From Candidatus Omnitrophota bacterium (lineage in GTDB: Bacteria; Omnitrophota; Gorgyraeia; Gygaellales; Profunditerraquicolaceae): a stretch of DNA of 64,000 nt. The notes beneath the pieces are model-generated. The model worked only from the letters and a program-made list of their open reading frames with translations, was not told the origin of the DNA and did no database searches. Where the stretch lies: positions 4,218 to 68,217 of the forward strand of contig JBAZLB010000008.1 in assembly GCA_041650495.1 (NCBI GenBank). Reading direction: 5' to 3'. The first letter of the stretch is position 1, and each line of letters begins with the position of its first letter. A program made the translations under genes and the position numbers. Of this stretch, positions 4,316 to 61,769 are shown piece by piece.

Positions 4316-4475
4316 GTATTCTCCTTATTTATGTTTTTTTTAATTGAGTGAAAGCATATCATATTATGGCTATTCCATCAAGAGAAAAATAAATAATTGA
4401 TGTTACTATTTTGAAATGTTAAGTTTTACGGCAGCTTCTTATAAGTAGGGATATACTTAGGCAGTAATATATGGC

Positions 4476-5558
4476 TTATATTTCCAGGAGCCTTGCGGAG
4501 TAGGCATTGAGCAGGTCTTTGTATTTTTTATTGATGCGGCAAGGAGCTAAAATAGCATATGATTTGCGCAACAATCTTTTTATCTCTGCCCGGGCATAAT
4601 CCAGCGCGCCGGAATCATCTACGATCTTACGCATCGCCAACAGGTCTTTTTTCTTGGTATCTTTCTTGGCAAATATTCTTTTTATTATTTTTCTGTCGCC
4701 AAGACAGGCTTTGCGGTAAGCCTGCCAAATCAGTATAGTCTTTTTGCCTTCTTTGAGGTCGGCGAGCATAGGTTTACCCGTTTCTTCTTCGTTGCTAAAC
4801 ATCCCTATGATATCGTCTTTTATCTGGAAGGCCCTGCCCAGGCACATGCCGTAGCGGGAAATCCTGTCTATATCTTCTCTGCCTGCCCCGGCAAGGATTG
4901 CTCCCGTGGCAAGGGGCGAGGCAAAGGTATAATGCGCTGTCTTAAGGTCATAGATTTTAACCAGGTCTTTTTTCTTTATATCTCTGATGTCTTTTGTGCT
5001 GTAAAGCAGGAGTTCAATGAATTCGCCGCTGCCCGTATAAACCGCCGCCCGGATAAAATTCTTCAAGGCCTCTTCTTTACGCTTTGCCTCTGTTTCTATT
5101 GATAAAAACGCTTCTATGGCCATAGCGTACATTACATCTCCGGCAGCGATAGCCAGGTCCTGGCCGTTAAATTTGATATTCTTATATCTTTTTAGGTAGT
5201 TATTAAGCATACGGTGCATCGACGGCTTGCCTCTCCTTAGTTCCGATTTATCTATAATGTCATCGTGGACGAGCATAAAATCATGCAGGAGCTCTAAGGA
5301 GATAGCGCTTTTAAATAAACCCCTGGCCGGATTCTTAGCAAAACCAAGGTATCCTATGATAAAAAGTATGGGCCTGACCCGCTTGCCTTTTCTAAGAATA
5401 AAATCTTTTATATGCAGGAACAGGACAGGGGATAGCCGGCTAAGGGAGTAGCTTTTATTGATATCGCCGACAAACTTGTGCAGTTCCTTATCCAGCTTAT
5501 TTTTGATTTTAGTAAACATAATTTTATGATAACATATAAAGAAGCCAAACACAAACAT
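4476..5558 (-). CDS. Polyprenyl diphosphate synthase (trans-isoprenyl diphosphate synthase family, ispB/hepT-like). The start may instead be the internal Met at 5519.
   Basis: The first aspartate-rich motif is 'LVHDDIIDKSELRRGKPS' and the second is 'FQIKDDIIG'. Confidence 0.8.
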   Translation of the reverse strand: MFVFGFFICYHKIMFTKIKNKLDKELHKFVGDINKSYSLSRLSPVLFLHIKDFILRKGKRVRPILFIIGYLGFAKNPARGLFKSAISLELLHDFMLVHDDIIDKSELRRGKPSMHRMLNNYLKRYKNIKFNGQDLAIAAGDVMYAMAIEAFLSIETEAKRKEEALKNFIRAAVYTGSGEFIELLLYSTKDIRDIKKKDLVKIYDLKTAHYTFASPLATGAILAGAGREDIDRISRYGMCLGRAFQIKDDIIGMFSNEEETGKPMLADLKEGKKTILIWQAYRKACLGDRKIIKRIFAKKDTKKKDLLAMRKIVDDSGALDYARAEIKRLLRKSYAILAPCRINKKYKDLLNAYSARLLEI

Positions 5559-10703: not shown

Positions 10704-11108
10704 GTTGACTGTCAATTTATCACAGCAAGTTTCTTTTTGCAATATCTTTCTCTCTTTTCTAATACCGTTTACCAATCCAAATATAATCTGTGGTAATCTT
10801 TCTCAAGAGCACAAGGGACAAGGTGATGGACGGAAACCGTCCCCTTTATTATGCGGGTCTGTCCCCGGCTGGGATTTACTTAGTTTTTTTGGGACTTTGC
10901 CCTCCGTAAGTTATGCGCTCATTAAGCTGTTTTTGTTGAAAAATCCTTAATAAGTGATAAAATATGAAGGCGTATCCGGAATGGGAAGATAAGGGCCCGC
11001 CTTAAGATTGAGCCGGGAAACAAGAAATGTCTGCCGCAGAGCATTTTTGTTATCTGCAGTATAAAATCTTTTTGAAATAATGAGTCCGATGAATAACAGG
11101 ATGGGTAT

Positions 11109-14136: not shown

Positions 14137-14528
14137 AGAAGCCTTTTTGTTGCATCTTTTTATTTTTTTTCCTGTTAACAGGCTGCCAGGCGCAAAATCC
14201 ATATCTGGATAAAACAAAGGAAGAAGCGGAGATATATTACTGGGACTTCGGGAAAGTAAAGACCGGGGTTATCCTGTCGCATGATTTCATCGTCAGGAAC
14301 AACTCGCAACACGTAATGCACATCAAGGAGATTACTACTTCCTGCGGTTGTGCTGTTCCTGAAATAGCCAAGAAGGTCCTTTCGCCAGGCGAAAGTACAT
14401 CTATGGCGGTGAATTTTAATACCGCAGGATATACCGGCGAGAGTAAACAGTACGTCTATGTGAACACCGACAGCCCGGATAATCCGATTTTACGTTTTAC
14501 AATCAGGGCAGAGATGTCGAAGGACTAA
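14133..14528 (+). CDS. DUF1573-family lipoprotein.
   Basis: The lipobox is 'LLTGC'. 'TSCGCAVPE' is the CGC motif typical of DUF1573. Its start overlaps the upstream gene. Confidence 0.6.
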   Translation: MKKPFCCIFLFFFLLTGCQAQNPYLDKTKEEAEIYYWDFGKVKTGVILSHDFIVRNNSQHVMHIKEITTSCGCAVPEIAKKVLSPGESTSMAVNFNTAGYTGESKQYVYVNTDSPDNPILRFTIRAEMSKD

Positions 14529-14544
14529 GGGCTAAGGGGACGTT

Positions 14545-14768
14545 CCCCGCGATTAGAACTCATTGTCAGAATTAAGTTTATGAGCGTGGCTTTATTTGTG
14601 TTCTTAGGGGCAAGTTTATCCCTCGCGTAAGCACTTGAAATTTCCTGGCGCAAGCGCCAGAAAATTTCTACGTACGCTTCAGGATAATTCGCAGACGCCC
14701 CTTTACAGGGGCTACAACTTACGTCGGAGATGGATAAAATAATCGCTCCGTAAGTTGTCTGCTCATTA
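14545..14768 (+). repeat. Structured intergenic repeat, copy A1. It is the longer, more diverged member of the five-copy dispersed family.
   Basis: It shares the 'CTTCAGGATAATTCGCAGACG' block and the hairpins 'GCCCCTTTACAGGGGC' and 'ACAACTTACGTCGGAG..CTCCGTAAGTTGT'. It has a 'CTGCTCATTA' end and an additional hairpin 'GAAATTTCCTGGCGCAAGCGCCAGAAAATTTC'. Confidence 0.7.
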
Positions 14769-14770
14769 AA

Positions 14771-14957
14771 TATACCCCGTTAGCTAAGCGCTGCGTGGAT
14801 CGTGTATCCCTTGCCTAAACGCTCGAAAATTACTTTCGCTATGCTCAGTAATTTTCTTCGCAGGCTTCGGGATAATTCGCAGACGCCCCTTTACAGGGGC
14901 TACAACTTACGTCGGAGATGGATAAAATAATCGCTCCGTAAGTTGTCTGCTCATTAC
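14771..14957 (+). repeat. Structured intergenic repeat, copy A2, lying in tandem with A1. It is the archetype of about 187 nt and ends 18 nt before the htpX ATG.
   Basis: Its last roughly 100 nt are identical to A1. It has three hairpins: 'GAAAATTACT..AGTAATTTTC', 'GCCCCTTTACAGGGGC' and 'ACAACTTACG..CGTAAGTTGT'. Confidence 0.8.
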
Positions 14958-14975
14958 ATTAAAGGAGGTAGAAGG

Positions 14976-15938
14976 ATGTTTTTTTTAAAACTGAGGATGT
15001 GGCTTTTGTTGGGGGCACTTTTTGGGATTATCTATGCCATAATGGTTATGGTCGGTTCTTACCTGGGGATTACGAATTTTTATTTCTACCTATTTTTATC
15101 TCTGGCCATGATTCTTGTCCAGTATCTTATCGGGCCTAAAATGGTAGAGTGGACCATGCGTGTCAGGTATGTGAGTAAACAGCAATACCCTCAACTGTTT
15201 AGCATGGTAGAAGAATTATCCGCTAAGGCAGGAATCCCTATGCCTAAAATAGGCATATCCGCTATTCAGTTGCCGAATGCCTTTGCTTTTGGCCGCACAC
15301 TTAAGGACGGACGGGTATGCGTTACCGAAGGGATACTGCGGTTATTAAACGAAGAAGAGCTAAGGGCGGTTTTGGGGCATGAGTTAAGCCATTTGAAGAA
15401 CCGGGATGTCCTGACTATAACCCTGCTTTCGGTCATACCCATGATTCTTTACCGCTTAGCCTGGCAGTTCTTATTTTACGGCCGCCGCAGGGATTCAGAA
15501 AGGGGAAATAATACCGCAATTATCGGCTTGCTGGCTTTTGTCTTCTATTTTATCACCAACCTGCTGGTCCTTTATGCCTCCCGGATACGGGAATATTTTG
15601 CCGATCGCGGCTCTGTACAGCTGGGGAATCATCCCTCCAGCCTTGCCTCCAGTTTATACAAACTGAGCCAGGCGTCAGCGCGGGTAACACCTGAGTCGTT
15701 AAAAGAGGTAGAGGGGGTAAAGGCGTTTTTTGTCAATAACCCTTCGCAGGCCCTGAATGAAATCAGGGAATTAAGGCAAATCGACCTGGATAAGAACGGC
15801 GTAATCGGAGCCTCGGAGTTGGAACGTCTAAAAAAAGGCAGGATAAAACTTAACTTAGGAGAAAGGTTGTTGGAACTTCTCAGCACTCATCCTAATATGC
15901 TTAAGCGCCTGATGCAGCTTTCCCAGTATCAAGACTGA
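14976..15938 (+). CDS. htpX: HtpX-type M48 zinc metalloprotease with a C-terminal EF-hand-like insertion.
   Basis: The active site is 'HELSHLKNRD' (HExxH), N-terminal TM helices are predicted, and the RBS is 'AAAGGAGGT'. The track ORF starts on TTG at 14943, inside the repeat. Confidence 0.8.
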   Translation: MFFLKLRMWLLLGALFGIIYAIMVMVGSYLGITNFYFYLFLSLAMILVQYLIGPKMVEWTMRVRYVSKQQYPQLFSMVEELSAKAGIPMPKIGISAIQLPNAFAFGRTLKDGRVCVTEGILRLLNEEELRAVLGHELSHLKNRDVLTITLLSVIPMILYRLAWQFLFYGRRRDSERGNNTAIIGLLAFVFYFITNLLVLYASRIREYFADRGSVQLGNHPSSLASSLYKLSQASARVTPESLKEVEGVKAFFVNNPSQALNEIRELRQIDLDKNGVIGASELERLKKGRIKLNLGERLLELLSTHPNMLKRLMQLSQYQD

Positions 15939-33118: not shown

Positions 33119-34090
33119 ATGGCATTTAAAGATATAAAAGGACAGGATAGGCCTATTGATATACTCAAGGAGCAGTTTAAGAATGGCCGTATTGCCGGTG
33201 GGTATCTTTTTACCGGGCAAGAAGCTATAGGTAAGCGCATGGTGGCTACTGTTTTGGCTAAGGCTGTTAACTGTAGAGACCAAGGAGCAGGTTTTGATTC
33301 TTGCGATAAGTGCCCTGAGTGTATTAAGATTGCAGGTAATCAGCATCCTGACGTGCATATCCTGGATACGGCAGATTCCGGATCCATAAAAATAGAAGCC
33401 GTAAGGCAATTAAGAAAAGATGTATGCCTTAAGCCTTATGCAGGCAGGATGAAGTTTTTTATTATAAATAACGCCCATAATATGACTGATGATGCCTCTA
33501 ACGCGCTTTTAAAAATACTGGAAGAGCCGGCAGGGGAGACAGCTATCATTTTAATCAGCGCAAAGCCGCTTTTGCTGCTTCCTACTATTATCTCCCGCTG
33601 CAAGCGCCTGAAATTCTCCTCTTTGCCCAGGGAAGAACTCGCCTGCATCCTGCAAAAAGATTATCTCCTGGACAGCCAATATGCGCATTTCCTGGCTTAT
33701 TACGCAGAAGGCCGGATCGGTTATGCCTTAAGCCTGAAAGATTCCGAAATTCTTAAGGAGAAGAACCGGATTATTGACAGGTTTGTTTTTTCTTCCGATA
33801 CGAGCTTTGAAAACATCACCCTGCGGGAAAGAGGGGATATATCATCCAGCCTGAACATATTGGCCGGGTGGTTCAGGGATTTATACCTTTTAAAAGTAGG
33901 CGTACCTCATCACCAGCTCATTAATTATGACCGTAAGGAGGAATTATTGCGGATGATGGGCCGTTATACGCTGATGGATTTGGAAGGAGCGATATCCTCC
34001 GTTTCGGATGCCCTTTTCTACCTGGAGCACAACGTTAACATAAAATTGCTGCTGTCTAACCTTAAGGCCTGCATTAAGGTTGGCGGATAA
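33119..34090 (+). CDS. holB: DNA polymerase III delta-prime subunit.
   Basis: It is an AAA+ clamp-loader subunit with 'GQEAIGKRMVATVLAKAVNC' and a zinc module of Cys residues. Confidence 0.85.
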   Translation: MAFKDIKGQDRPIDILKEQFKNGRIAGGYLFTGQEAIGKRMVATVLAKAVNCRDQGAGFDSCDKCPECIKIAGNQHPDVHILDTADSGSIKIEAVRQLRKDVCLKPYAGRMKFFIINNAHNMTDDASNALLKILEEPAGETAIILISAKPLLLLPTIISRCKRLKFSSLPREELACILQKDYLLDSQYAHFLAYYAEGRIGYALSLKDSEILKEKNRIIDRFVFSSDTSFENITLRERGDISSSLNILAGWFRDLYLLKVGVPHHQLINYDRKEELLRMMGRYTLMDLEGAISSVSDALFYLEHNVNIKLLLSNLKACIKVGG

Positions 34091-34110
34091 GAATATATGG
34101 AGAAAAACTT

Positions 34111-38431: not shown

Positions 38432-39043
38432 ATGGGTGACAGCGGGCTTCTTGGGTTAAGGCTTAAATTGGATGATGCAATTACCTATGGCACTTACCGG
38501 GAGTCTTTAGAGATTGCCCTGCAAGGCCTTAAGGAAGCCGAGGAGAAAGGCTATCCGGGAGAAGTAGAATATTTCAAAGGGCAACTGGATATCCTGCATG
38601 AAAAATATAACAGCGCCATTGAGCATTTTGATGCCGCCATAAAATATAACCCCGCAGACGGCGCCTCTTATAATGACCGGGCCTTGTGCATGATAGAATT
38701 AGGGATTATTGATAAGGCATTTTATTATTTTGATAAAGGCATTGAAGTAGAGCCTGATTATGCTACTATTTACCATAATAAAGGATGGCTCCTGAATAAT
38801 ATCGGCAGATATGAAGAGGCAATAGAATGTTTCCGCAAGGCCCTGGGCCTGCAGCCGATGAGGCCGGTAACGTATGACAATCTGGGGGATGCCTTGTTTA
38901 ATCTCGCGGATTATCAGGGTGCGCTGGCGGCTTATAAAAAGGTCCTGGAGTTATTAAAGCCGGATACCTGCCTTGAGATAAGAGAACAGGTGAAGGAAAG
39001 AATCAAGGAGATTAAAGAACAAAAAGGGGACGGTTCTATTTAA
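38432..39043 (+). CDS. Tetratricopeptide-repeat protein.
   Basis: It has multiple TPR units of 34 aa (W/LG/Y-A-F-A-P pattern). Confidence 0.6.
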   Translation: MGDSGLLGLRLKLDDAITYGTYRESLEIALQGLKEAEEKGYPGEVEYFKGQLDILHEKYNSAIEHFDAAIKYNPADGASYNDRALCMIELGIIDKAFYYFDKGIEVEPDYATIYHNKGWLLNNIGRYEEAIECFRKALGLQPMRPVTYDNLGDALFNLADYQGALAAYKKVLELLKPDTCLEIREQVKERIKEIKEQKGDGSI

Positions 39044-39190
39044 TCTATCCCCGTTAGCTAAGCGCTGCGTGGATCGTGTATCCCTTGTCTAAGCGCCTGG
39101 AGATTTCTTCGAAATCTTCATCGCAGGCTTCGGGATAATTCGCCCAGACAACTTATGTTCACTACCGTTCCATAAGTTGTGGGCTCGTTA
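39044..39190 (+). repeat. Structured intergenic repeat, copy C. It ends 12 nt before the mtnA ATG.
   Basis: It shares the 'CCCCGTTAGCTAAGCGCTGCGTGGATCGTGTATCCCTT' block (one mismatch to copy A2), the 'CGCAGGCTTCGGGATAATTCGC' core and a hairpin 'ACAACTTATG..CATAAGTTGT' with a compensatory change. Confidence 0.8.
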
Positions 39191-39202
39191 AAAGGAGCAA
39201 GG

Positions 39203-40252
39203 ATGAAAGAGATTACGACTATAAAATGGCAGAATAATGCTATCAGAATTATCGATCAGACAAAATTACCGGGTGAATTGCGTTATTTGTATATCAATAA
39301 CCTTAAAGACCTGTGGCAAGCGGTAAAGATAATGCAGGTAAGAGGTGCTCCGGCGTTAGGGGCTGCCGCAGCCTTGGGGGTATACTTAGGTATCAGGGGC
39401 TCGCGGGCAAATAACTTTCTCCAATTTAAGAGAGAGTTGGATAAGGTGATTAAGTATTTAGCCTCCAGTCGGCCCACGGCCAGAAATCTGTTTTGGGGCC
39501 TGGAGAGGATGAGGCGTTTGGCTGAAGAAAATAAGGCAAAACCGGTTGTGAAAATAAAAAAGGCTTTATGGCAGGAGGCAAATAATATAATTGAGGAAGA
39601 CAGGACTGTCTGCCGCAGGATCGGGTACTTCGGTGCAAAATTAATCCGGGACAATGATACGATATTGACTGTTTGTAATGCCGGGATACTAGCTACTATT
39701 GATTACGGTACTGCTTTAGGGGTGATTTATAAAGCAAAGCAGGAAGGTAAGCGTATAAAAGTATTTGCCTGCGAAACCAGGCCGATGCTGCAGGGCGCGC
39801 GTCTTACTTCCTGGGAGTTGCAGAAGAAAGGCATTGATGTTACTCTTATCTGCGATAATATGGCTGCCTGTTTGATGAAGCAGGGAAGGATTGATAAGGT
39901 CATTACCGGTGCTGACAGGATCGCCTTAAACGGCGATACTGCCAATAAGATCGGTACGTATAACCTAGCGGTATTAAGCCATTACCACAATATCCCCTTT
40001 TATATTGCAGCCCCCGTTTCTACCTTTGATTTTAGATTGGCTTGCGGCACTCATATTCCCATTGAAGAGCGCCCGGCAGAGGAACTTACCAGTTTATTTT
40101 TTCGCAAGCCTATCGCGGCTTCGGGGGTCAAGGTTTTTAACCCCTGTTTTGATGTTACTCCTTCTAAACTGATAAGTGCGATCATTACCGATAAGGGCAT
40201 TATCCGTCCGCCATACCGGAAAAATATCCTGAAATTAAAAAAAGCTCCATAA
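39203..40252 (+). CDS. mtnA: S-methyl-5-thioribose-1-phosphate isomerase (eIF-2B alpha/beta/delta family).
   Basis: It has 'IIDQTKLP', 'GAPALGAAAALG' and 'GADRIALNGDTANKIGTY'. The track ORF starts on GTG inside the repeat, so the ATG at 39203 with RBS 'AAGGAG' is preferred. Confidence 0.85.
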   Translation: MKEITTIKWQNNAIRIIDQTKLPGELRYLYINNLKDLWQAVKIMQVRGAPALGAAAALGVYLGIRGSRANNFLQFKRELDKVIKYLASSRPTARNLFWGLERMRRLAEENKAKPVVKIKKALWQEANNIIEEDRTVCRRIGYFGAKLIRDNDTILTVCNAGILATIDYGTALGVIYKAKQEGKRIKVFACETRPMLQGARLTSWELQKKGIDVTLICDNMAACLMKQGRIDKVITGADRIALNGDTANKIGTYNLAVLSHYHNIPFYIAAPVSTFDFRLACGTHIPIEERPAEELTSLFFRKPIAASGVKVFNPCFDVTPSKLISAIITDKGIIRPPYRKNILKLKKAP

Positions 40253-51669: not shown

Positions 51670-52677
51670 GAGGAAGCTATGCCTGAATTAAGGTATAACA
51701 TCATTGGCCGGGATTGGGTAATTGTTGCTACGGAGAGGGCAAAGCGCCCCAGGGATTTTATAAAGAAAAAGAAGGAAGAAGCAGTAGTGCCTGAATATAA
51801 AGACAACTGTCCCTTTTGTCCCGGAAATGAGAGTCAGACTCCGCAGGAGACATTCCGCTTGGGTGATAAGAATATATGGAAGGTGCGTTCAGTTTATAAT
51901 CTTTACGGGGCGCTTTCCGCGAATGAAAAGATGGCCCGGGATAACAATGGGATGTATATATCAATGAACGGATTCGGAAACCATGAGGTGATTATCGAGC
52001 ATCCCCGGCACAACATTTCCATAGCCTTGATGAGCGAAGAAGAAGTGGAAAATATTATAAGGGCATACAGGGATCGTTATCTGTCGATTCAGGATATTCA
52101 GGGAATTGAAGCTATTGTGATTTTTAAAAATCACGGCCCCAGCGCAGGCACTTCGCTGGAGCATCCTCATTCACAGCTTATTGCTACCCCTATCGTTCCT
52201 CCGCAGATAAGAGGCCGCATAGAACAGGCGGCAGGTTATTTTGACCTTACCGGCAACTGTGTCTTCTGTCAGACACTCAAGGAAGAACTTAAGGCAAAAC
52301 AGCGGATTGTCTTTGAAACGGATAAATTTGTTTCCTTTGTGCCTTACGCAGGGGTAGCTCCTTTTGTTACCTGGATTTTTCCCCGCAGGCATATGGCTTC
52401 TTTCGCCGAGATTAGCGACGGAGAAATAGGCGATTTAGCGGGCAACTTAAGGCGCACTCTTCAGAAATTATATTACGGCCTCCAAAACCCGGATTTTAAT
52501 TATACCATCCGTTCTATCCCGGTAAAAGAGAACGGCGCAGAGTATTTCCATTGGTACATAGGTATTATCCCGCGCTTAAGCCAGCCTGCCGGATTTGAAT
52601 TGGGCAGCGGGATGTTTATTAATACCTCTTTGGCTGAGGAGGCGGCAGAGTTTTTACGCCAGGTCCGGTGCCCGTAG
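51670..52677 (+). CDS. galT: Galactose-1-phosphate uridylyltransferase (HIT family).
   Basis: It has the zinc site 'CPFCPGNE' and the active site 'HPHSQ'. The RBS is 'AAGGAGGA'. Confidence 0.8.
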   Translation, partial: EEAMPELRYNIIGRDWVIVATERAKRPRDFIKKKKEEAVVPEYKDNCPFCPGNESQTPQETFRLGDKNIWKVRSVYNLYGALSANEKMARDNNGMYISMNGFGNHEVIIEHPRHNISIALMSEEEVENIIRAYRDRYLSIQDIQGIEAIVIFKNHGPSAGTSLEHPHSQLIATPIVPPQIRGRIEQAAGYFDLTGNCVFCQTLKEELKAKQRIVFETDKFVSFVPYAGVAPFVTWIFPRRHMASFAEISDGEIGDLAGNLRRTLQKLYYGLQNPDFNYTIRSIPVKENGAEYFHWYIGIIPRLSQPAGFELGSGMFINTSLAEEAAEFLRQVRCP

Positions 52678-52754: not shown

Positions 52755-53744
52755 ATGTCCATAAAAGAAGCTGAGAGATCAAGGTTATTACCCGCGTTAT
52801 TTTTATCTATCTTTTTGTCCCCCTTTGTTTTATCCAATGCCTATGCTGATGAGGCAAGGGCAGAGGCGCAGGAACAGGCGATTAAAGAGGCGGAGGAATC
52901 ATCAATTCCTACCGCAGAAGACTTCCGTCAGAGGTTAAGACGGACGGTAGTTATACAGGAAGAAGAGTTTGCTCAAGGGATAGATTCTTTTGTGCAGTAT
53001 ATGCCTTCCCGGGGAGTGGATGCGCAGTCAGGAAAGGTCGGGGTAATTCATTCAGCTGTTGAATACAGCTATCAAACCAAGGCCTTTGGTAAATTGCCGG
53101 TAGAATTTGCGGTAGGGGCTGATTATTTGGGAATAGATAATACTACTGTCGTAAAACTTCCGGCGCATTTGACCGGAGTAGCTTTCGGCGCGGAAACCAC
53201 ATTCCCTCTTTTTAATATTGATAAGACTTATTTGACTATAGGGCTTGCCCCGTCTTTATTGGGTGATGATTGGAATTTTGATTCCTCGCATTTTCGTATG
53301 CTGCAGCGTTATTTCCTAATCCATCAGCCGAATGAACAATGGACGTTTATTGCTGGCGTTGCAGTATTTCCGGACTATGATGACGATATTGTTCCAATTT
53401 TAGGTTTTATCTACAGGCCCAATGACCGGTTGACTTTTAATATCATTCCCAAGAGGCCGGAGATTTCCTATGCCTTAGATGATAAATTTACGGTCTTTGC
53501 TGAAGCAGATATGTCCTCAAGTGAGTTTGAGGTGGATAAAGACACGTTTAAGGATGTAATAATTGAGTATAATGAAATGCACGCAGGTCTGGGCCTCAAA
53601 TATAAACCGAATAAATATATTAATAGTTCTGTTTCTGTCGGAGGTATGTTTAATCGTTCCATAAAGTACCGCGACGACAACCTGGGTAAAGTTACGATTA
53701 AAGACGGCCTATATACCGAATTCCGGCTGGAATTGAGTTTCTGA
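52755..53744 (+). CDS. Predicted outer-membrane beta-barrel protein.
   Basis: It has a signal peptide, alternating-hydrophobic beta strands and a C-terminal Phe ('LELSF'). Confidence 0.5.
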   Translation: MSIKEAERSRLLPALFLSIFLSPFVLSNAYADEARAEAQEQAIKEAEESSIPTAEDFRQRLRRTVVIQEEEFAQGIDSFVQYMPSRGVDAQSGKVGVIHSAVEYSYQTKAFGKLPVEFAVGADYLGIDNTTVVKLPAHLTGVAFGAETTFPLFNIDKTYLTIGLAPSLLGDDWNFDSSHFRMLQRYFLIHQPNEQWTFIAGVAVFPDYDDDIVPILGFIYRPNDRLTFNIIPKRPEISYALDDKFTVFAEADMSSSEFEVDKDTFKDVIIEYNEMHAGLGLKYKPNKYINSSVSVGGMFNRSIKYRDDNLGKVTIKDGLYTEFRLELSF

Positions 53745-53885
53745 TTAATGACGACACAACTTACGGAGCGAAGCGAGCGTAAGTTGTTGTCGGAATTAAT
53801 CCCCGCTGCTACGAGTAGATTTCGAAGAAATCTACGACGTGCTTAGCTGCGGGGCTAGATGCTAGTTATTTGCGCGAATTATCCC
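53745..53885 (-). repeat. Structured intergenic repeat, copy D. It is in inverted orientation, lies between convergent genes and overlaps the stop codon of the OMP gene.
   Basis: Its reverse complement contains 'GGGATAATTCGCG', the hairpin 'GTAGATTTCTTCGAAATCTAC', 'ACAACTTACG..CGTAAGTTGT' and the end 'GTCGTCATTAA'. Confidence 0.75.
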
Positions 53886-53897
53886 TAAGCGTACGCA

Positions 53898-54513: not shown

Positions 54514-54594
54514 TGCGGGAGGAGGGAGTTGAACCCTCATGCCTTGCGGCACTGGCTTCTGAGACCAGCGCGTCTGCCATTCCGCCACCCCCGC
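54514..54594 (-). tRNA. tRNA-Leu(CAG).
   Basis: The 81-nt cloverleaf has the acceptor GCGGGGG/CTCCCGC, a 3-bp D stem and the anticodon loop CTCAGAA. The variable arm is 13 nt (TGCC-GCAA-GGCA). The T arm is GAGGG-TTCAACT-CCCTC. Discriminator is A and CCA is not encoded. Confidence 0.85.
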
Positions 54595-55686: not shown

Positions 55687-55778
55687 ATGCGGCATGAGTT
55701 GTGGTAGTTGTTCCGCCTCATAAACCACGCTAAGATTCTGTTTCCCGGGAAATGCGAAGCATTTCCGGGATTAAATCC

Positions 55779-55912
55779 CCGAAATCGCCTAGCGATTTCA
55801 GGGGACCATAATTTTAGCGTATTCGGCGGGATAATTCGCAGACGGCCTTACGGCCTACGACTTATGTCGTAGTGGATATAAAACTGATACTCCATAAGTC
55901 GTCTGCTCATTA
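55779..55912 (+). repeat. Structured intergenic repeat, copy E. It ends 16 nt before the smpB ATG.
   Basis: It has 'GAAATCGCCTAGCGATTTC', 'GGCGGGATAATTCGCAGACGGCCTTACGGCC', 'ACGACTTATG..CATAAGTCGT' and 'CTGCTCATTA'. Confidence 0.8.
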
Positions 55913-55928
55913 AAGTTGCGTGCTCATT

Positions 55929-56390
55929 ATGAGTAAGATTATCGCTACCAACCATAAGGCCTTAAGGGATTATGCGGTTATAGAGGCAATTGAGTGCGGC
56001 ATAGAATTAAAGGGCAGTGAAGTTAAATCCTTGCGTGAAGGCCAGGTCAATCTGAATGAAAGTTTTGCCCGGATAGAGGACGGAGAAATAATATTATATA
56101 ATGCCCACATCAGCCCTTATGCGCAGGCAAGCTATCTTAATGTTGATCCGGTCAGAGAGAGGAGGCTGCTTTTACATAAGAAGCAGATAAACAGGCTCGC
56201 TGCTCAGATAGCCCAGAAAGGTTTTGCCCTGATTCCGCTTAAGGCCTATTTTAACGAGCGGGGTTTTGCAAAAATAGAACTTGCCATGTCCAGAGGCAAG
56301 AAGTCATACGATAAAAGAGAAGATATTAAACGCCGCGAGAGCGATCTGACCATGCGCCGTATTCTTAAGGCCAGGGCCAGGAATAAGTAA
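55929..56390 (+). CDS. smpB: SsrA-binding protein SmpB.
   Basis: It has 'GIELKGSEVKSLREGQVNL' and 'LLLHKKQI', and it is followed by tmRNA. The track ORF starts on GTG inside the repeat. Confidence 0.95.
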   Translation: MSKIIATNHKALRDYAVIEAIECGIELKGSEVKSLREGQVNLNESFARIEDGEIILYNAHISPYAQASYLNVDPVRERRLLLHKKQINRLAAQIAQKGFALIPLKAYFNERGFAKIELAMSRGKKSYDKREDIKRRESDLTMRRILKARARNK

Positions 56391-56408: not shown

Positions 56409-56815
56409 GGGGGTGAAAGGGCTCGACTTGGGTAAGCCGGGTAAGAGCAGCATGCCGCGGATGCGAGGTGAGCCGCGTTAACAATCCTTGCAAAATACAA
56501 ATGCCAACTACGAAACAGTAGGGCTGAGACCGGTGTCGACAGTAATGCCGACATTTGTCCCGGCTGGCGTGCAAGTCCCAGTCCTTAATTAAGGGTTGGG
56601 CCTCTCTTAACCCTTGCCTGGGGGTTAGGTAGGGCGATTTCTAGGCTGGTTGCGCGTTTTGCCTTTGGGCGCGTGACGAGAGCGGTTTTAAGGCTGCGTC
56701 TTTTCCGGATCCCGCCTGACGGAGCCGGATGAGACAAAGAATAAAAGACAGGCTAAGCATGTAGCGGCTTTTATTTGGTTACTTAAGGACGGCGGTTCAA
56801 TTCCGCCCACCTCCA
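56409..56815 (+). ncRNA. ssrA: Transfer-messenger RNA (ssrA/tmRNA).
   Basis: The 5' end 'GGGGGTG' pairs with the 3' 'CACCTCC' and has a G3-U wobble like tRNA-Ala. The T arm is 'GGCGGTTCAATTCCGCC' and the discriminator is A. The internal tag ORF begins 'GCCAACTACGAA' (ANYE...) and ends at a TAA followed by the helix 'AGGGTT..AACCCT'. The gene is about 407 nt and lies directly downstream of smpB. Confidence 0.85.
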
Positions 56816-57041
56816 CTTTCTAAGGTAAGACTAAAAAAGGGGGAAAATCATTAGTTTAATACAAAGGAAGGAAGAAAAAAGGCAGCCTGGCACTCCAGGG
56901 CCGGGTAATCTTATTAAGGGGATTATCCTGGGGGTATGTCTCCTGGTTTTAGCCGGCTGCGCTACCGTTTCAGTCCGCGATAACTTCCCCACTTACAATA
57001 TAGGCGGCCTCACTTATATACCCGCGGTATCTCTTTGCCGT

Positions 57042-60926: not shown

Positions 60927-61769
60927 ATGAGAAGATTAGAGGCAAAAACAATCAGGCAGGCGGTTGAGGATTTATGCATAAAGGCTAATACCATCTTAAG
61001 GAAGGATGTTTTAAAAGCCCTTAAGTTATCTTTAAAAAAAGAAAGCAGCGCAGGGGCCAGGAATATTTTAGAGGCGATTATTCAGAACGCCTCCATAGCC
61101 AAAAAAGAAAAACTGGCGATTTGTCAGGATACCGGTATGCCGATAGTCTTCCTGGAGGTCGGCCAGCAGGTAAATATCAGGGGAGATGTCAATCAGGCAG
61201 TAACTAAAGGTATAGAAGACGGCTATAAAAAAGGGTATTTCCGGCCTTCCGTCATCAGGGACCCTTTATCAAGGGGCAGGCCGCAGTATTCACCCGTGCT
61301 TATCCACGCGGATATTGTCCGGGGAGATAAAATGAAGATTACCGTTTTGCCTAAGGGCTTTGGCTGCGAAAATAAATCCAGGCTGTGTATGTTTAAGCCG
61401 ACCGCAGGTTTTCTTGAAATAAAGAGATTTATTCTTGAGACGGTAAAAGATGCGGGCCCGGATGCCTGTCCTCCCTATGTGGTGGGGGTGGGTATAGGCG
61501 GCAGCGCAGAATACGCTTCTCTGCTGGCTAAAAAGGCCCTGCTTAAAGATATTACCTGTGGCAAGACGAAGAATTCCGGCCGGAACGCAAAGTTAGAGGA
61601 TGAATTATTGAAGGAGATAAACAGCTTAGGTATCGGGCCGATGGGCTTAGGCGGTAAGACCACGGCATTAGGCGTAAAGATACTGACTTATCCTACCCAT
61701 ATTGCCGGGCTGCCGGTAGCGGTAAATATCAGCTGTCACGCCCTGCGCAGTGCCGGCACAATATTGTAA
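60927..61769 (+). CDS. fumA: Class I (Fe-S) fumarate hydratase, alpha subunit (N-terminal domain).
   Basis: It has 'ICQDTGMPIVFLEVGQ'. Confidence 0.85.
   Translation: MRRLEAKTIRQAVEDLCIKANTILRKDVLKALKLSLKKESSAGARNILEAIIQNASIAKKEKLAICQDTGMPIVFLEVGQQVNIRGDVNQAVTKGIEDGYKKGYFRPSVIRDPLSRGRPQYSPVLIHADIVRGDKMKITVLPKGFGCENKSRLCMFKPTAGFLEIKRFILETVKDAGPDACPPYVVGVGIGGSAEYASLLAKKALLKDITCGKTKNSGRNAKLEDELLKEINSLGIGPMGLGGKTTALGVKILTYPTHIAGLPVAVNISCHALRSAGTIL

Follow-up and report, generated by a model that had tools for sequence, protein, structure and literature searches.

A mosaic family of palindromic intergenic repeats, probably mobile DNA, in Candidatus Omnitrophota

A dispersed palindromic repeat in the window and beyond

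We analyzed a 64,000-nt stretch of contig JBAZLB010000008.1 from a Candidatus Omnitrophota bacterium (assembly GCA_041650495.1; hereafter, the window), in which a first-pass annotation had reported five copies of a structured intergenic repeat, two in tandem (A1 and A2) and three single (C, D, and E). These copies belong to a dispersed family of structured intergenic elements without open reading frames (ORFs), of the REP/BIME or miniature inverted-repeat transposable element (MITE) kind, as that annotation had proposed. The family is probably a non-autonomous, mosaic palindromic repeat akin to REP, BIME, REPIN, and MITE sequences, carried mainly by Candidatus Omnitrophota as selfish or semi-domesticated mobile DNA. 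A covariance model trained solely on 66 copies from other organisms gave exactly five significant matches in the window, at the sites and on the strands reported initially (Table 1). The 3′ motif RTAAGTYGTNNNNTCRTTA occurs there six times versus 0.57 expected, and the two-block pattern GGATAATTCGC-N27-57-RTAAGTYGTNNNNTCRTTA four times versus 0 expected. The shared blocks quoted in the annotation were found again in the sequence and by exact-seed repeat finding, which returned the tandem pair at 14.6 to 14.96 kb and blocks in common with 39.05, 53.87, and 55.81 kb. RNA folds of the five copies had z-scores of −2.9 to −6.9.

The density of copies in the window had led to the prediction of many copies genome-wide. 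Many further copies do occur in other genomes and contigs. In a scan of one genome per species, the two-block pattern was present in 10 metagenome-assembled genomes (MAGs), labeled as Omnitrophota (six), Planctomycetia/Planctomycetales (two), Nitrospirota (one), and unclassified (one). A metagenome scan for the rod and terminus described below retrieved at least 120 contigs, most of which we take, from their names, to come from sediment and groundwater; matching loci contained 167 rods in 505 kb. Sequence scans of viral contigs, plasmids, and phages revealed no copy. Four syntenic Omnitrophota relatives (about 20 kb each) likewise had none in 79.6 kb, nor any upstream of their mtnA genes, and the nearest homologues of the mtnA gene in the window are only 73 to 74% identical to it. 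In three syntenic relatives a DUF362 gene is followed directly by mtnA, −4 to 65 nt downstream, whereas between these two genes the window has a TPR gene and copy C; the TPR gene is missing in L134 to L136 (loci outside the window are numbered with the prefix L). Since many MAGs and contigs carry copies while the four syntenic relatives have none, the family is widespread yet patchy, not universal.

Architecture of the element

The copies in the window consist of a variable hairpin (P1), a linker, and a rod. P1 is an irregular hairpin closed by CCC...GGG, whose sequence is highly variable, and the linker is conserved as (G)GGAT(T)AATTCGC. The rod is built on a basal helix TAAT/ATTA, a 2 × 2 internal loop TC/TC, and a covarying stem of 4 to 5 bp; its middle carries a 2-nt bulge in some copies and, in others, an inserted hairpin that turns it into a three-way junction, and its distal part is a 10-bp stem (ACRACTTAYG/CRTAAGTYGT) with a loop of 13 to 27 nt. 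The element ends with CTCATTA. RNAalifold predicted exactly the structure just described on 66 simple-rod copies. All three hairpins of the first-pass annotation are real and find their place here: the first is the inner stem of P1, the second the optional hairpin at the rod bulge, and the third the 10-bp distal stem.

The full element (about 135 to 310 bp) comprises three adjacent hairpins, i.e., a left rod (consensus TAAGT-GA-NNNN...NNNN-GA-ACTTA), P1, and a right rod (TTAAT-TC-GNNN-(2-nt bulge or inserted hairpin)-ACRACTTAYG-loop-CRTAAGTYGT-NNNC-TC-ATTA). The second, inverted rod with a TAAGTGAG-type end was present in 39 to 40 of the 119 foreign copies. It starts with TAAGTGAG or AAATGAAG and joins P1 through GAACTTATCC or CTGAATTTGACC. 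The left end, TAAGTGAG-NNNN..., is an imperfect reverse complement of the right end (TAATGAG-NNNN...), and the rod model matched left rods on the opposite strand with 50 to 68 bits. Homology between the rods, together with their opposite orientation, makes the ends of the element imperfect terminal inverted repeats. The earlier statement that such repeats are lacking was thus wrong for the family, about one third of which has ends of the form TAAGTGAG.../...CTCATTA. One full copy folded as three abutting hairpins with z-scores of −10.5 (RNA) and −9.4 (DNA). The majority of copies, those in the window included, have P1 and the right rod alone.

Modules are reshuffled at the conserved linker, where the same P1 is joined to different rods. 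The P1 of A1 recurs with the same rod in L024, and that of A2 with a different rod in L017. Small palindromes (CCTTGACAT...ATGTCAAGG, ATCCGCCA...TGGCGGAT, and CCCCCCTTCTTGC...) occupy the P1 slot, the junction slot of the rod, or the place of the left rod (Table 1). Such palindromes, CCCGCCCTTTTGG... among them, behave as if they were independent insertable modules, and CCTTGACAT...ATGTCAAGG displays TTGACA on both strands. As a separate observation, in AAATGAAG-type left ends (L047, L022, L129, L026, L075, and L097), GGAGGTC before the end reads as a Shine-Dalgarno (SD) sequence followed by ATG AAG, opening a mini-ORF of 7 to 15 codons that runs into the left rod (e.g., MKTQLSER*); this could be a coincidence or a leader peptide.

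Covariation supports pairing of the stems but is not visibly RNA specific

The metagenome search pattern admitted all purine/pyrimidine combinations at two rod pairs, which provides an unbiased test of covariation at these positions. Among 123 distinct copies, the first pair was A-T in 95, G-C in 27, A·C in 1, and G·T in none, and the second was C-G in 71, T-A in 48, C·A in 2, and T·G in 2. The outer rod stem, which the search left unconstrained, had at least 12 complementary variants. In the alignment of 66 rods, 99.5% of the cells were paired (91.3% in shuffles), 91 cells had changed on both sides versus 25 expected, and the covariation score was 0.217 (0.069 in shuffles); 0 of 500 shuffles reached any of the three observed values. 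Moving the pairing partner by 1 to 3 columns abolished the signal. The pairing of the stems is real.

The first-pass annotation had taken covariation as a sign of selection on RNA or cruciform structure. The covariation stands, but selection on an RNA fold does not follow from it. The outer helices of P1, recounted with G·T handled as any other mismatch, have 838 Watson-Crick pairs, 5 G·T, and 9 A·C, so that G·T is no more common than A·C; mismatches in the rod were 6 G·U and 2 A·C. A G·U excess in P1 counted on energy-model folds (23 versus 6) was discarded as an artifact of the folding model, given the unbiased recount (5 versus 9). The pairing thus does not look visibly RNA specific. DNA palindromes, correction between the arms, or young copies would each be expected to leave nearly pure Watson-Crick stems whose mismatches are symmetric, and the lack of a G·U excess over A·C favors DNA palindromes over a selected RNA fold. 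Two compensatory changes (ACAATTTACG/CGTAAATTGT versus ATAATTTATG/CATAAATTAT) separate the left rods of the orthologous copies L111 and L120, which lie in flanks about 88% identical, and P1 is remodeled between them. These changes weigh against the pure youth of copies.

Copies fit between co-directional genes

Where a downstream ORF could be called, it was co-directional with the element in 97 cases and convergent in 20 (83% co-oriented), and the upstream gene was co-directional in 90 versus 24. More than half of the co-directional downstream ORFs (56 of 97) begin within 16 nt of CTCATTA. In about 30 copies the ATG lies at +1 to +4 with no SD sequence, and in about 25 an SD sequence is present and the ATG lies at +10 to +16. 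Of the convergent ORFs, nine have their ends no more than 10 nt from the element. At the other end, the first TAA of the element is the stop codon of the upstream ORF in 18 of 29 full-length type-a copies (an open frame of at least 50 codons was required), and in 15 of these 18 the next ATG is 1 to 5 nt past the element. Since it supplies the upstream TAA and ends 1 to 5 nt before the ATG, the element can fill a whole intergenic gap. The neighbors in the window encode DUF1573 and M48 (HtpX-like) peptidase, TPR and MtnA, ORF6N and DUF6268, and Mem_trans and SmpB proteins; elsewhere, neighboring genes include ilvB, dnaK, ftsA, ribH, nusB, ppdK, trxA, and ribosomal protein genes, and the genes downstream of copies are functionally unrelated housekeeping genes. 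The window copies have neither a sigma-70-type promoter nor an intrinsic terminator. A sigma-70 promoter, with GATAAT/TTAATT in the linker as the −10 box and TTGACA in some P1 hairpins, was accordingly rejected as a candidate.

The bias suggests that one orientation alone is harmless or useful at the RNA level. A primary cis-acting function in RNA, with the element co-transcribed as an intercistronic or 5′ untranslated sequence and its spread being secondary, is possible but rather unlikely. The element would then act as a stabilizer of the upstream or downstream mRNA segment, as an RNase processing site next to CUCAUUA, or as a stop-to-start bridge for translational coupling without an SD sequence. 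Co-orientation, the proximity of start codons, and the roughly 30 copies with an ATG too close for an SD sequence all speak for such a role. So do a fold without single-stranded linkers, which brings the 5′ and 3′ ends near each other, linker and loop nucleotides that are conserved more than pairing requires, and the compensatory changes between the orthologous copies. However, G·U pairs are not enriched over A·C among more than 838 pairs, the genes of close syntenic relatives work without the family, and the genes downstream of copies share no function. Furthermore, some copies sit at 3′ ends, some separate convergent genes or follow tRNA or 5S rRNA genes, and others form tandem or truncated arrays. 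A primary function in RNA does not exclude mobility.

Signs of mobility and direct repeats at the flanks

Unrelated flanks surround nine pairs of copies that share 90% identity or more across 120 nt, a sign of dispersal, probably by transposition. Direct repeats of 8 to 55 bp flank about 10 to 12 of 124 copies (about 9%; Table 1). They begin 0 to 2 nt past CTCATTA and stop at the 5′ boundary of the element, the right junction being constant and the left one variable, and they are imperfect, with differences that are mostly transitions. Some copies are preceded by tRNA genes (Leu, Gln, and others) and followed by an imperfect duplicate of the last 16 to 32 nt of the tRNA. At L031 and L042, the downstream tRNA fragment is closer to the tRNA-Gln of L101 than to the adjacent tRNA, which suggests that it arrived together with the element. 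The left flanks of 38 full-length copies showed no conservation. Flanking repeats of this kind fit no fixed-stagger DDE transposase and no insertion of the IS200/IS605 type; they are compatible with a single crossover of small circles with short homology, with a recombinase, or with an insertion of the reverse-transcription type. In L111 and L120, the A of the tgt ATG is the last base of the inverted left end of the element, and the duplicated flank suggests that the start codon of tgt was TTG before the insertion. Matches to the left end far from right ends, considered as a possible autonomous element, were merely reverse complements of right ends or variant rods.

Repeat-flanked copies might be small integrative units, or their scars, left at the 3′ ends of tRNA or 5S rRNA genes by a tyrosine recombinase or a Campbell-type single crossover. 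At least six flanking repeats span a tRNA from the T-loop to the 3′ end and one corresponds to the 3′ end of 5S rRNA. Imperfect repeats of variable length are expected if one derives from the donor and the other from the recipient, and the downstream fragments of L031, L042, and L101 are closer to one another than to the adjacent tRNAs (L031 and L042). We nonetheless consider this origin unlikely, because only about 9% of the copies have flanking repeats, no integrase gene lies within 3.5 kb, and the inserted unit measures only 120 to 250 bp. Homologies of 8 to 24 bp are short for RecA-dependent recombination, and copies without repeats, e.g., the five in the window, would be left unexplained.

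The same junctions could be produced by reverse transcription. In its most elaborate form, this explanation would make the element a bacterial retroposon resembling a short interspersed nuclear element (SINE) that is also "translationally transparent," i.e., its three-hairpin fold would join stop and start so that coupling survives an insertion of 150 to 300 nt. The constant 3′ and variable 5′ junctions, the duplications of 8 to 55 bp, and the stop-to-start placement are compatible with this model, without demonstrating it, and we hold it to be very unlikely. SINE-like retroposition of the repeat-flanked subset, in which an RNA ending in ...CUCAUUA would be inserted by target-primed reverse transcription with an enzyme encoded elsewhere, is highly improbable too. 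It would account for a 3′ junction fixed at CTCATTA plus 0 to 2 nt, for the variable 5′ junction and duplication length, and for the abundance of forms lacking 5′ parts (P1 and right rod, rod only, or 3′ arm only); forms with only the left rod were not seen in searches anchored on the right rod, an asymmetry that is partly built into such searches. On the other hand, the 5′ ends are not random truncations, as P1 is always complete, and no reverse transcriptase lies within 3.5 kb of any copy. Several flanking repeats are too diverged for fresh duplications (the L031 and L042 fragments resemble the tRNA of another lineage), and we know of no bacterial retroposon of the SINE-like kind.

A riboswitch, leader, or attenuator of a defined regulon, or a known small RNA or ribozyme, is hardly tenable despite the sites just before start codons and the complex conserved structure, because the downstream genes are unrelated (the ground on which a riboswitch or leader was rejected), copies are also tandem, truncated, or at 3′ ends and number five in 64 kb, and no Rfam 15 family accounts for the element. 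At the gathering score, only tmRNA, tRNA, and rRNA were matched, none of them over the element, and relaxing the E-value up to 10 added just two chance-level matches over it (4.5 and 7.2); a known Rfam family, which the first-pass annotation had raised as a possible explanation of the structure, was thus not found. A group II intron domain, integron attC site, CRISPR repeat, retron, and omega-RNA were also rejected, since the sequence and structure features that define these are absent and no partner protein is encoded nearby.

A non-autonomous mobile repeat as the favored explanation

We favor the non-autonomous, mosaic mobile repeat as the probable nature of the family. An enzyme encoded elsewhere in the genome would copy the elements in trans into tiny intergenic gaps. 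Insertions would survive there by supplying a TAA at the left end and stopping just before the next start codon, and the element would be co-transcribed with little or no harm to either neighboring gene. Pairing between arms would be kept at the DNA level, by recognition of hairpins or cruciforms or by correction between arms, and not by selection on an RNA fold.

Several results weigh against this explanation. Within 3.5 kb of 139 copies, we found no recurrent transposase, RAYT, reverse transcriptase, or integrase gene and no cluster resembling Y1 transposases. No autonomous partner with the same ends was found in about 700 kb of loci, nor in the plasmids, phages, and viral contigs scanned. 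No short fixed duplication (TA, TAA, or 2 to 6 bp) was enriched compared with permuted flanks, and a precise empty site was recovered neither by exact-protein look-ups, which led back to the same contig only, nor from relatives at 73% identity, which lack the element but are also without the TPR gene. Core sequences are strikingly alike across MAGs labeled as different phyla. The compensatory changes in both arms between L111 and L120 suggest that pairing is maintained in place, which gene conversion could also explain. Finally, the orientation bias and the tight abutment on start codons could mean a function in RNA rather than tolerance.

Relation to known repeat families

The element resembles REP/BIME sequences of Enterobacteria and REPINs of Pseudomonas in being an extragenic, ORF-less, high-copy imperfect palindrome in transcribed co-directional gaps, which occurs as singlets, inverted doublets, and mosaic arrays with conserved linkers, mostly without an adjacent transposase and with nearly perfect Watson-Crick pairing. 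REP and REPIN sequences are mobilized by RAYTs, Y1 transposases similar to those of IS200/IS605. However, REPs measure 20 to 40 nt, whereas the rods described here are 55 to 90 nt long and contain an internal loop, either a bulge or a three-way junction, and a conserved distal stem of 10 bp; the GTAG tetranucleotide of REPs is missing, and the conserved ends are TAAGTGAG and CTCATTA instead. In addition, the family has a variable central P1 between the inverted units and, in some copies, direct repeats of 8 to 55 bp. The host phylum also differs from that of REP/BIME, and no link to a RAYT is evident (none within 3.5 kb of copies).

Correia/NEMIS elements of Neisseria, ERIC, RUP, and Nezha are likewise non-coding units of 100 to 300 bp with terminal inverted repeats that are gene adjacent and co-transcribed, and internally deleted or half forms are common among Correia elements and other MITEs. 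Folded Correia transcripts can be substrates of RNase III or alter the expression of neighboring genes. The present family shares no sequence similarity with them, has no fixed short duplication (TA in Correia), no known parent insertion sequence (IS), and no promoter-like site in the window copies, and each of its arms is itself a hairpin. PATEs, which derive from IS200/IS605, share hairpin ends, the lack of an ORF, and an orientation bias, but they insert 3′ of a fixed tetra- or pentanucleotide without duplication, whereas in this family the left flanks lack conservation, some copies have flanking repeats, and the ends form an inverted repeat. As with tRNA-targeting integrative elements, a subset of copies follows tRNA or 5S rRNA genes with imperfect repeats from the T-loop to the 3′ end; unlike those elements, the unit is 120 to 250 bp long, has no integrase nearby, and is mostly repeat free. 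As both REP features (no GTAG and a longer unit) and MITE features (no fixed duplication and no known parent IS) fail, the family is a palindromic intergenic repeat outside any named one.

Omnitrophota are known almost solely from MAGs, and we found no description of their repeat content. Nor did we find this element described in the searchable literature (searched with the phylum name and keywords as well as with exact sequences) or in annotated plasmids or phages. In a phylum about which little is known, it is a real, abundant element with no description that we could find and some unusual traits, although its general nature is familiar. Its TAA, TTG, and GTG codons extend or end ORFs and can mislead gene calling, and copies can break up assemblies and be mistaken for regulatory RNAs when genomes are screened comparatively. 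The patchy spread could serve as a marker of recent lineage-specific expansion and perhaps of horizontal transfer between MAGs labeled as different phyla. For sequences of the REP or MITE type, exact placement from stop to start is unusual, as are long, variable flanking repeats next to tRNA and 5S rRNA genes; these traits offer a handle on the mechanism of mobilization and on the tolerance of compact genomes for structured insertions between coupled genes.

Individual copies in the window

The five sites reported in the first-pass annotation hold, with some refinements: A1 reaches farther left, to about 14536, and D and E are preceded by partial copies (Table 1). The left boundary of A1 was set where its alignment with L024, a paralogue on another contig, begins (GGGGACG), 8 nt past the stop codon of the DUF1573 gene (14526-14528); the left-arm remnant in this extension has no canonical rod fold. 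At their 5′ ends, A2 and C carry a block (CCCCGTTAGCTAAGCGC...) that repeats the 5′ strand of P1 in tandem; the module of A2 recurs in L017 as well as in C. A stretch of 87 bases of A2 (14870-14956) is identical to 14682-14768 of A1. An SD sequence (AAAGGAGG) and the ATG of the htpX-like gene (peptidase M48) at 14976 follow A2. Copy C starts 5 nt past the TAA (39041-39043) of the TPR gene and is followed by an SD sequence and the mtnA ATG at 39203; its rod has an outer stem GCCCA/TGGGC, a 2-nt bulge, and then ACAACTTATG/CATAAGTTGT. The last codons of the TPR gene (GGG GAC GGT TCT ATT TAA; 39026-39043) share GGGGACGGTTCT with the left extension of A1 (14536-14547) and with L024, and the C terminus of this ORF may hence stem from repeat-derived sequence.

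The partial copy before D lies 2 nt past the stop codon of the ORF6N gene and is truncated at the same point as in L017. Copy D folds with a z-score of −6.9 and ends 2 nt from the TGA of the convergent DUF6268 gene. Copy E is composed of a hairpin (55777-55804), a rearranged 3′ strand of P1, the linker, and a three-way-junction rod (55831-55912) that carries ACGACTTATG/CATAAGTCGT. The motif TGCTCATTA occurs twice within 55904-55931, 8 nt apart; the last A of the second is the A of the smpB ATG, and this second motif is probably the end relic of an older copy. The smpB gene has no preceding SD sequence; a tmRNA gene lies at 56409-56818, and a tRNA gene at 54514-54594 on the reverse strand.

Table 1. 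Copies, parts, and relics of the element in the window, and selected features of loci outside it
Feature	Coordinates	Strand	Evidence or remark
Relic, only rod 3′ arm and terminus (GTAAGTTATGCGCTCATTA), 5′ truncated	10906-10924	+	Not significant with the covariance model
A1, 5′ extension, degenerate inverted left-arm remnant (TTAAGTTTATGAGC ... GGGGCAAGTTTAT)	14536-14619	+	Motif comparison with full-length copies
A1, P1 hairpin (CCCTCGCGTAAGCAC ... inner hairpin GAAATTTCCTGGCGC/GCGCCAGAAAATTTC ... CGTACGCTTCAGG)	14620-14683	+	
A1, linker and three-way-junction rod, inserted hairpin GCCCCTTTACAGGGGC, end CTCATTA	14684-14768	+	Covariance-model match 14680-14770; fold
A2, duplicated 5′ strand module (CCCCGTTAGCTAAGCGCTGCGTGGATCGTGTAT)	14775-14807	+	Repeat finding
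A2, P1 hairpin	14808-14871	+	Fold
A2, linker and rod	14872-14956	+	Covariance-model match 14868-14958
C, duplicated 5′ strand module	39049-39081	+	Repeat finding
C, P1 hairpin	39082-39134	+	Fold
C, linker and simple rod, end CTCGTTA	39135-39190	+	Covariance-model match 39131-39192, 76.4 bits
D, P1 (53854-53801) and CCGACA-type rod (53800-53746)	53746-53854	−	Covariance-model match 53744-53803, 73.7 bits
Partial copy upstream of D (GCGTACGCTTAGGGATAATTCGCGCAAATAACT)	53864-53896	−	
Miniature partial copy upstream of E (CCCGGGAAATGCGAAGCATTTCCGGG and ATTAAATCC)	55744-55778	+	Motif comparison
E	55777-55912	+	Covariance-model match 55827-55914
Second terminal motif TGCTCATTA	55921-55929	+	Overlaps smpB start codon
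Small palindrome in rod junction slot			L018, L019, L095
Small palindrome in P1 slot			L021, L049, L051, L114, L127
Small palindrome in left-rod slot			L035, L069, L073, L102, L132
Flanking repeat, L111			10 bp, perfect; duplicates start of tgt
Flanking repeat, L029			10 bp
Flanking repeat, L063			8 bp; duplicates SD sequence
Flanking repeat, L007			24 bp; duplicates last codons of an ORF
Flanking repeat, L023			55 bp
Copy with flanking repeat, L040	1106-1350		32 bp; tRNA 3′ end from T-loop
Copy with flanking repeat, L101	6210-6424	−	23 bp; tRNA 3′ end from T-loop
Flanking repeat, L086			22 bp; tRNA 3′ end from T-loop
Flanking repeat, L014			16-17 bp; tRNA 3′ end from T-loop
Copy with flanking repeat, L053	~4470-4780	−	20 bp; 3′ end of 5S rRNA, complete rRNA operon
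Flanking repeat, L031			Diverged tRNA repeat
Copy with flanking repeat, L042	4429-4640		Diverged tRNA repeat

Other observations

A separate family of 30-nt direct repeats (CATTAAGGTTGGCGGATAAGAATATATGGA), 70 to 83% identical, is present in the window at 34072-34101, 51851-51880, and 60949-60978. The copy at 34072-34101 covers the stop codon of one listed ORF together with the gap that separates it from the following ORF. This family is unrelated to the palindromic element. In the syntenic relative L137 (4132-6720), the methionyl-tRNA synthetase gene is interrupted by an ORF of 331 amino acids with a weak LAGLIDADG_3 match, suggestive of an intein or of the insertion of a homing endonuclease.

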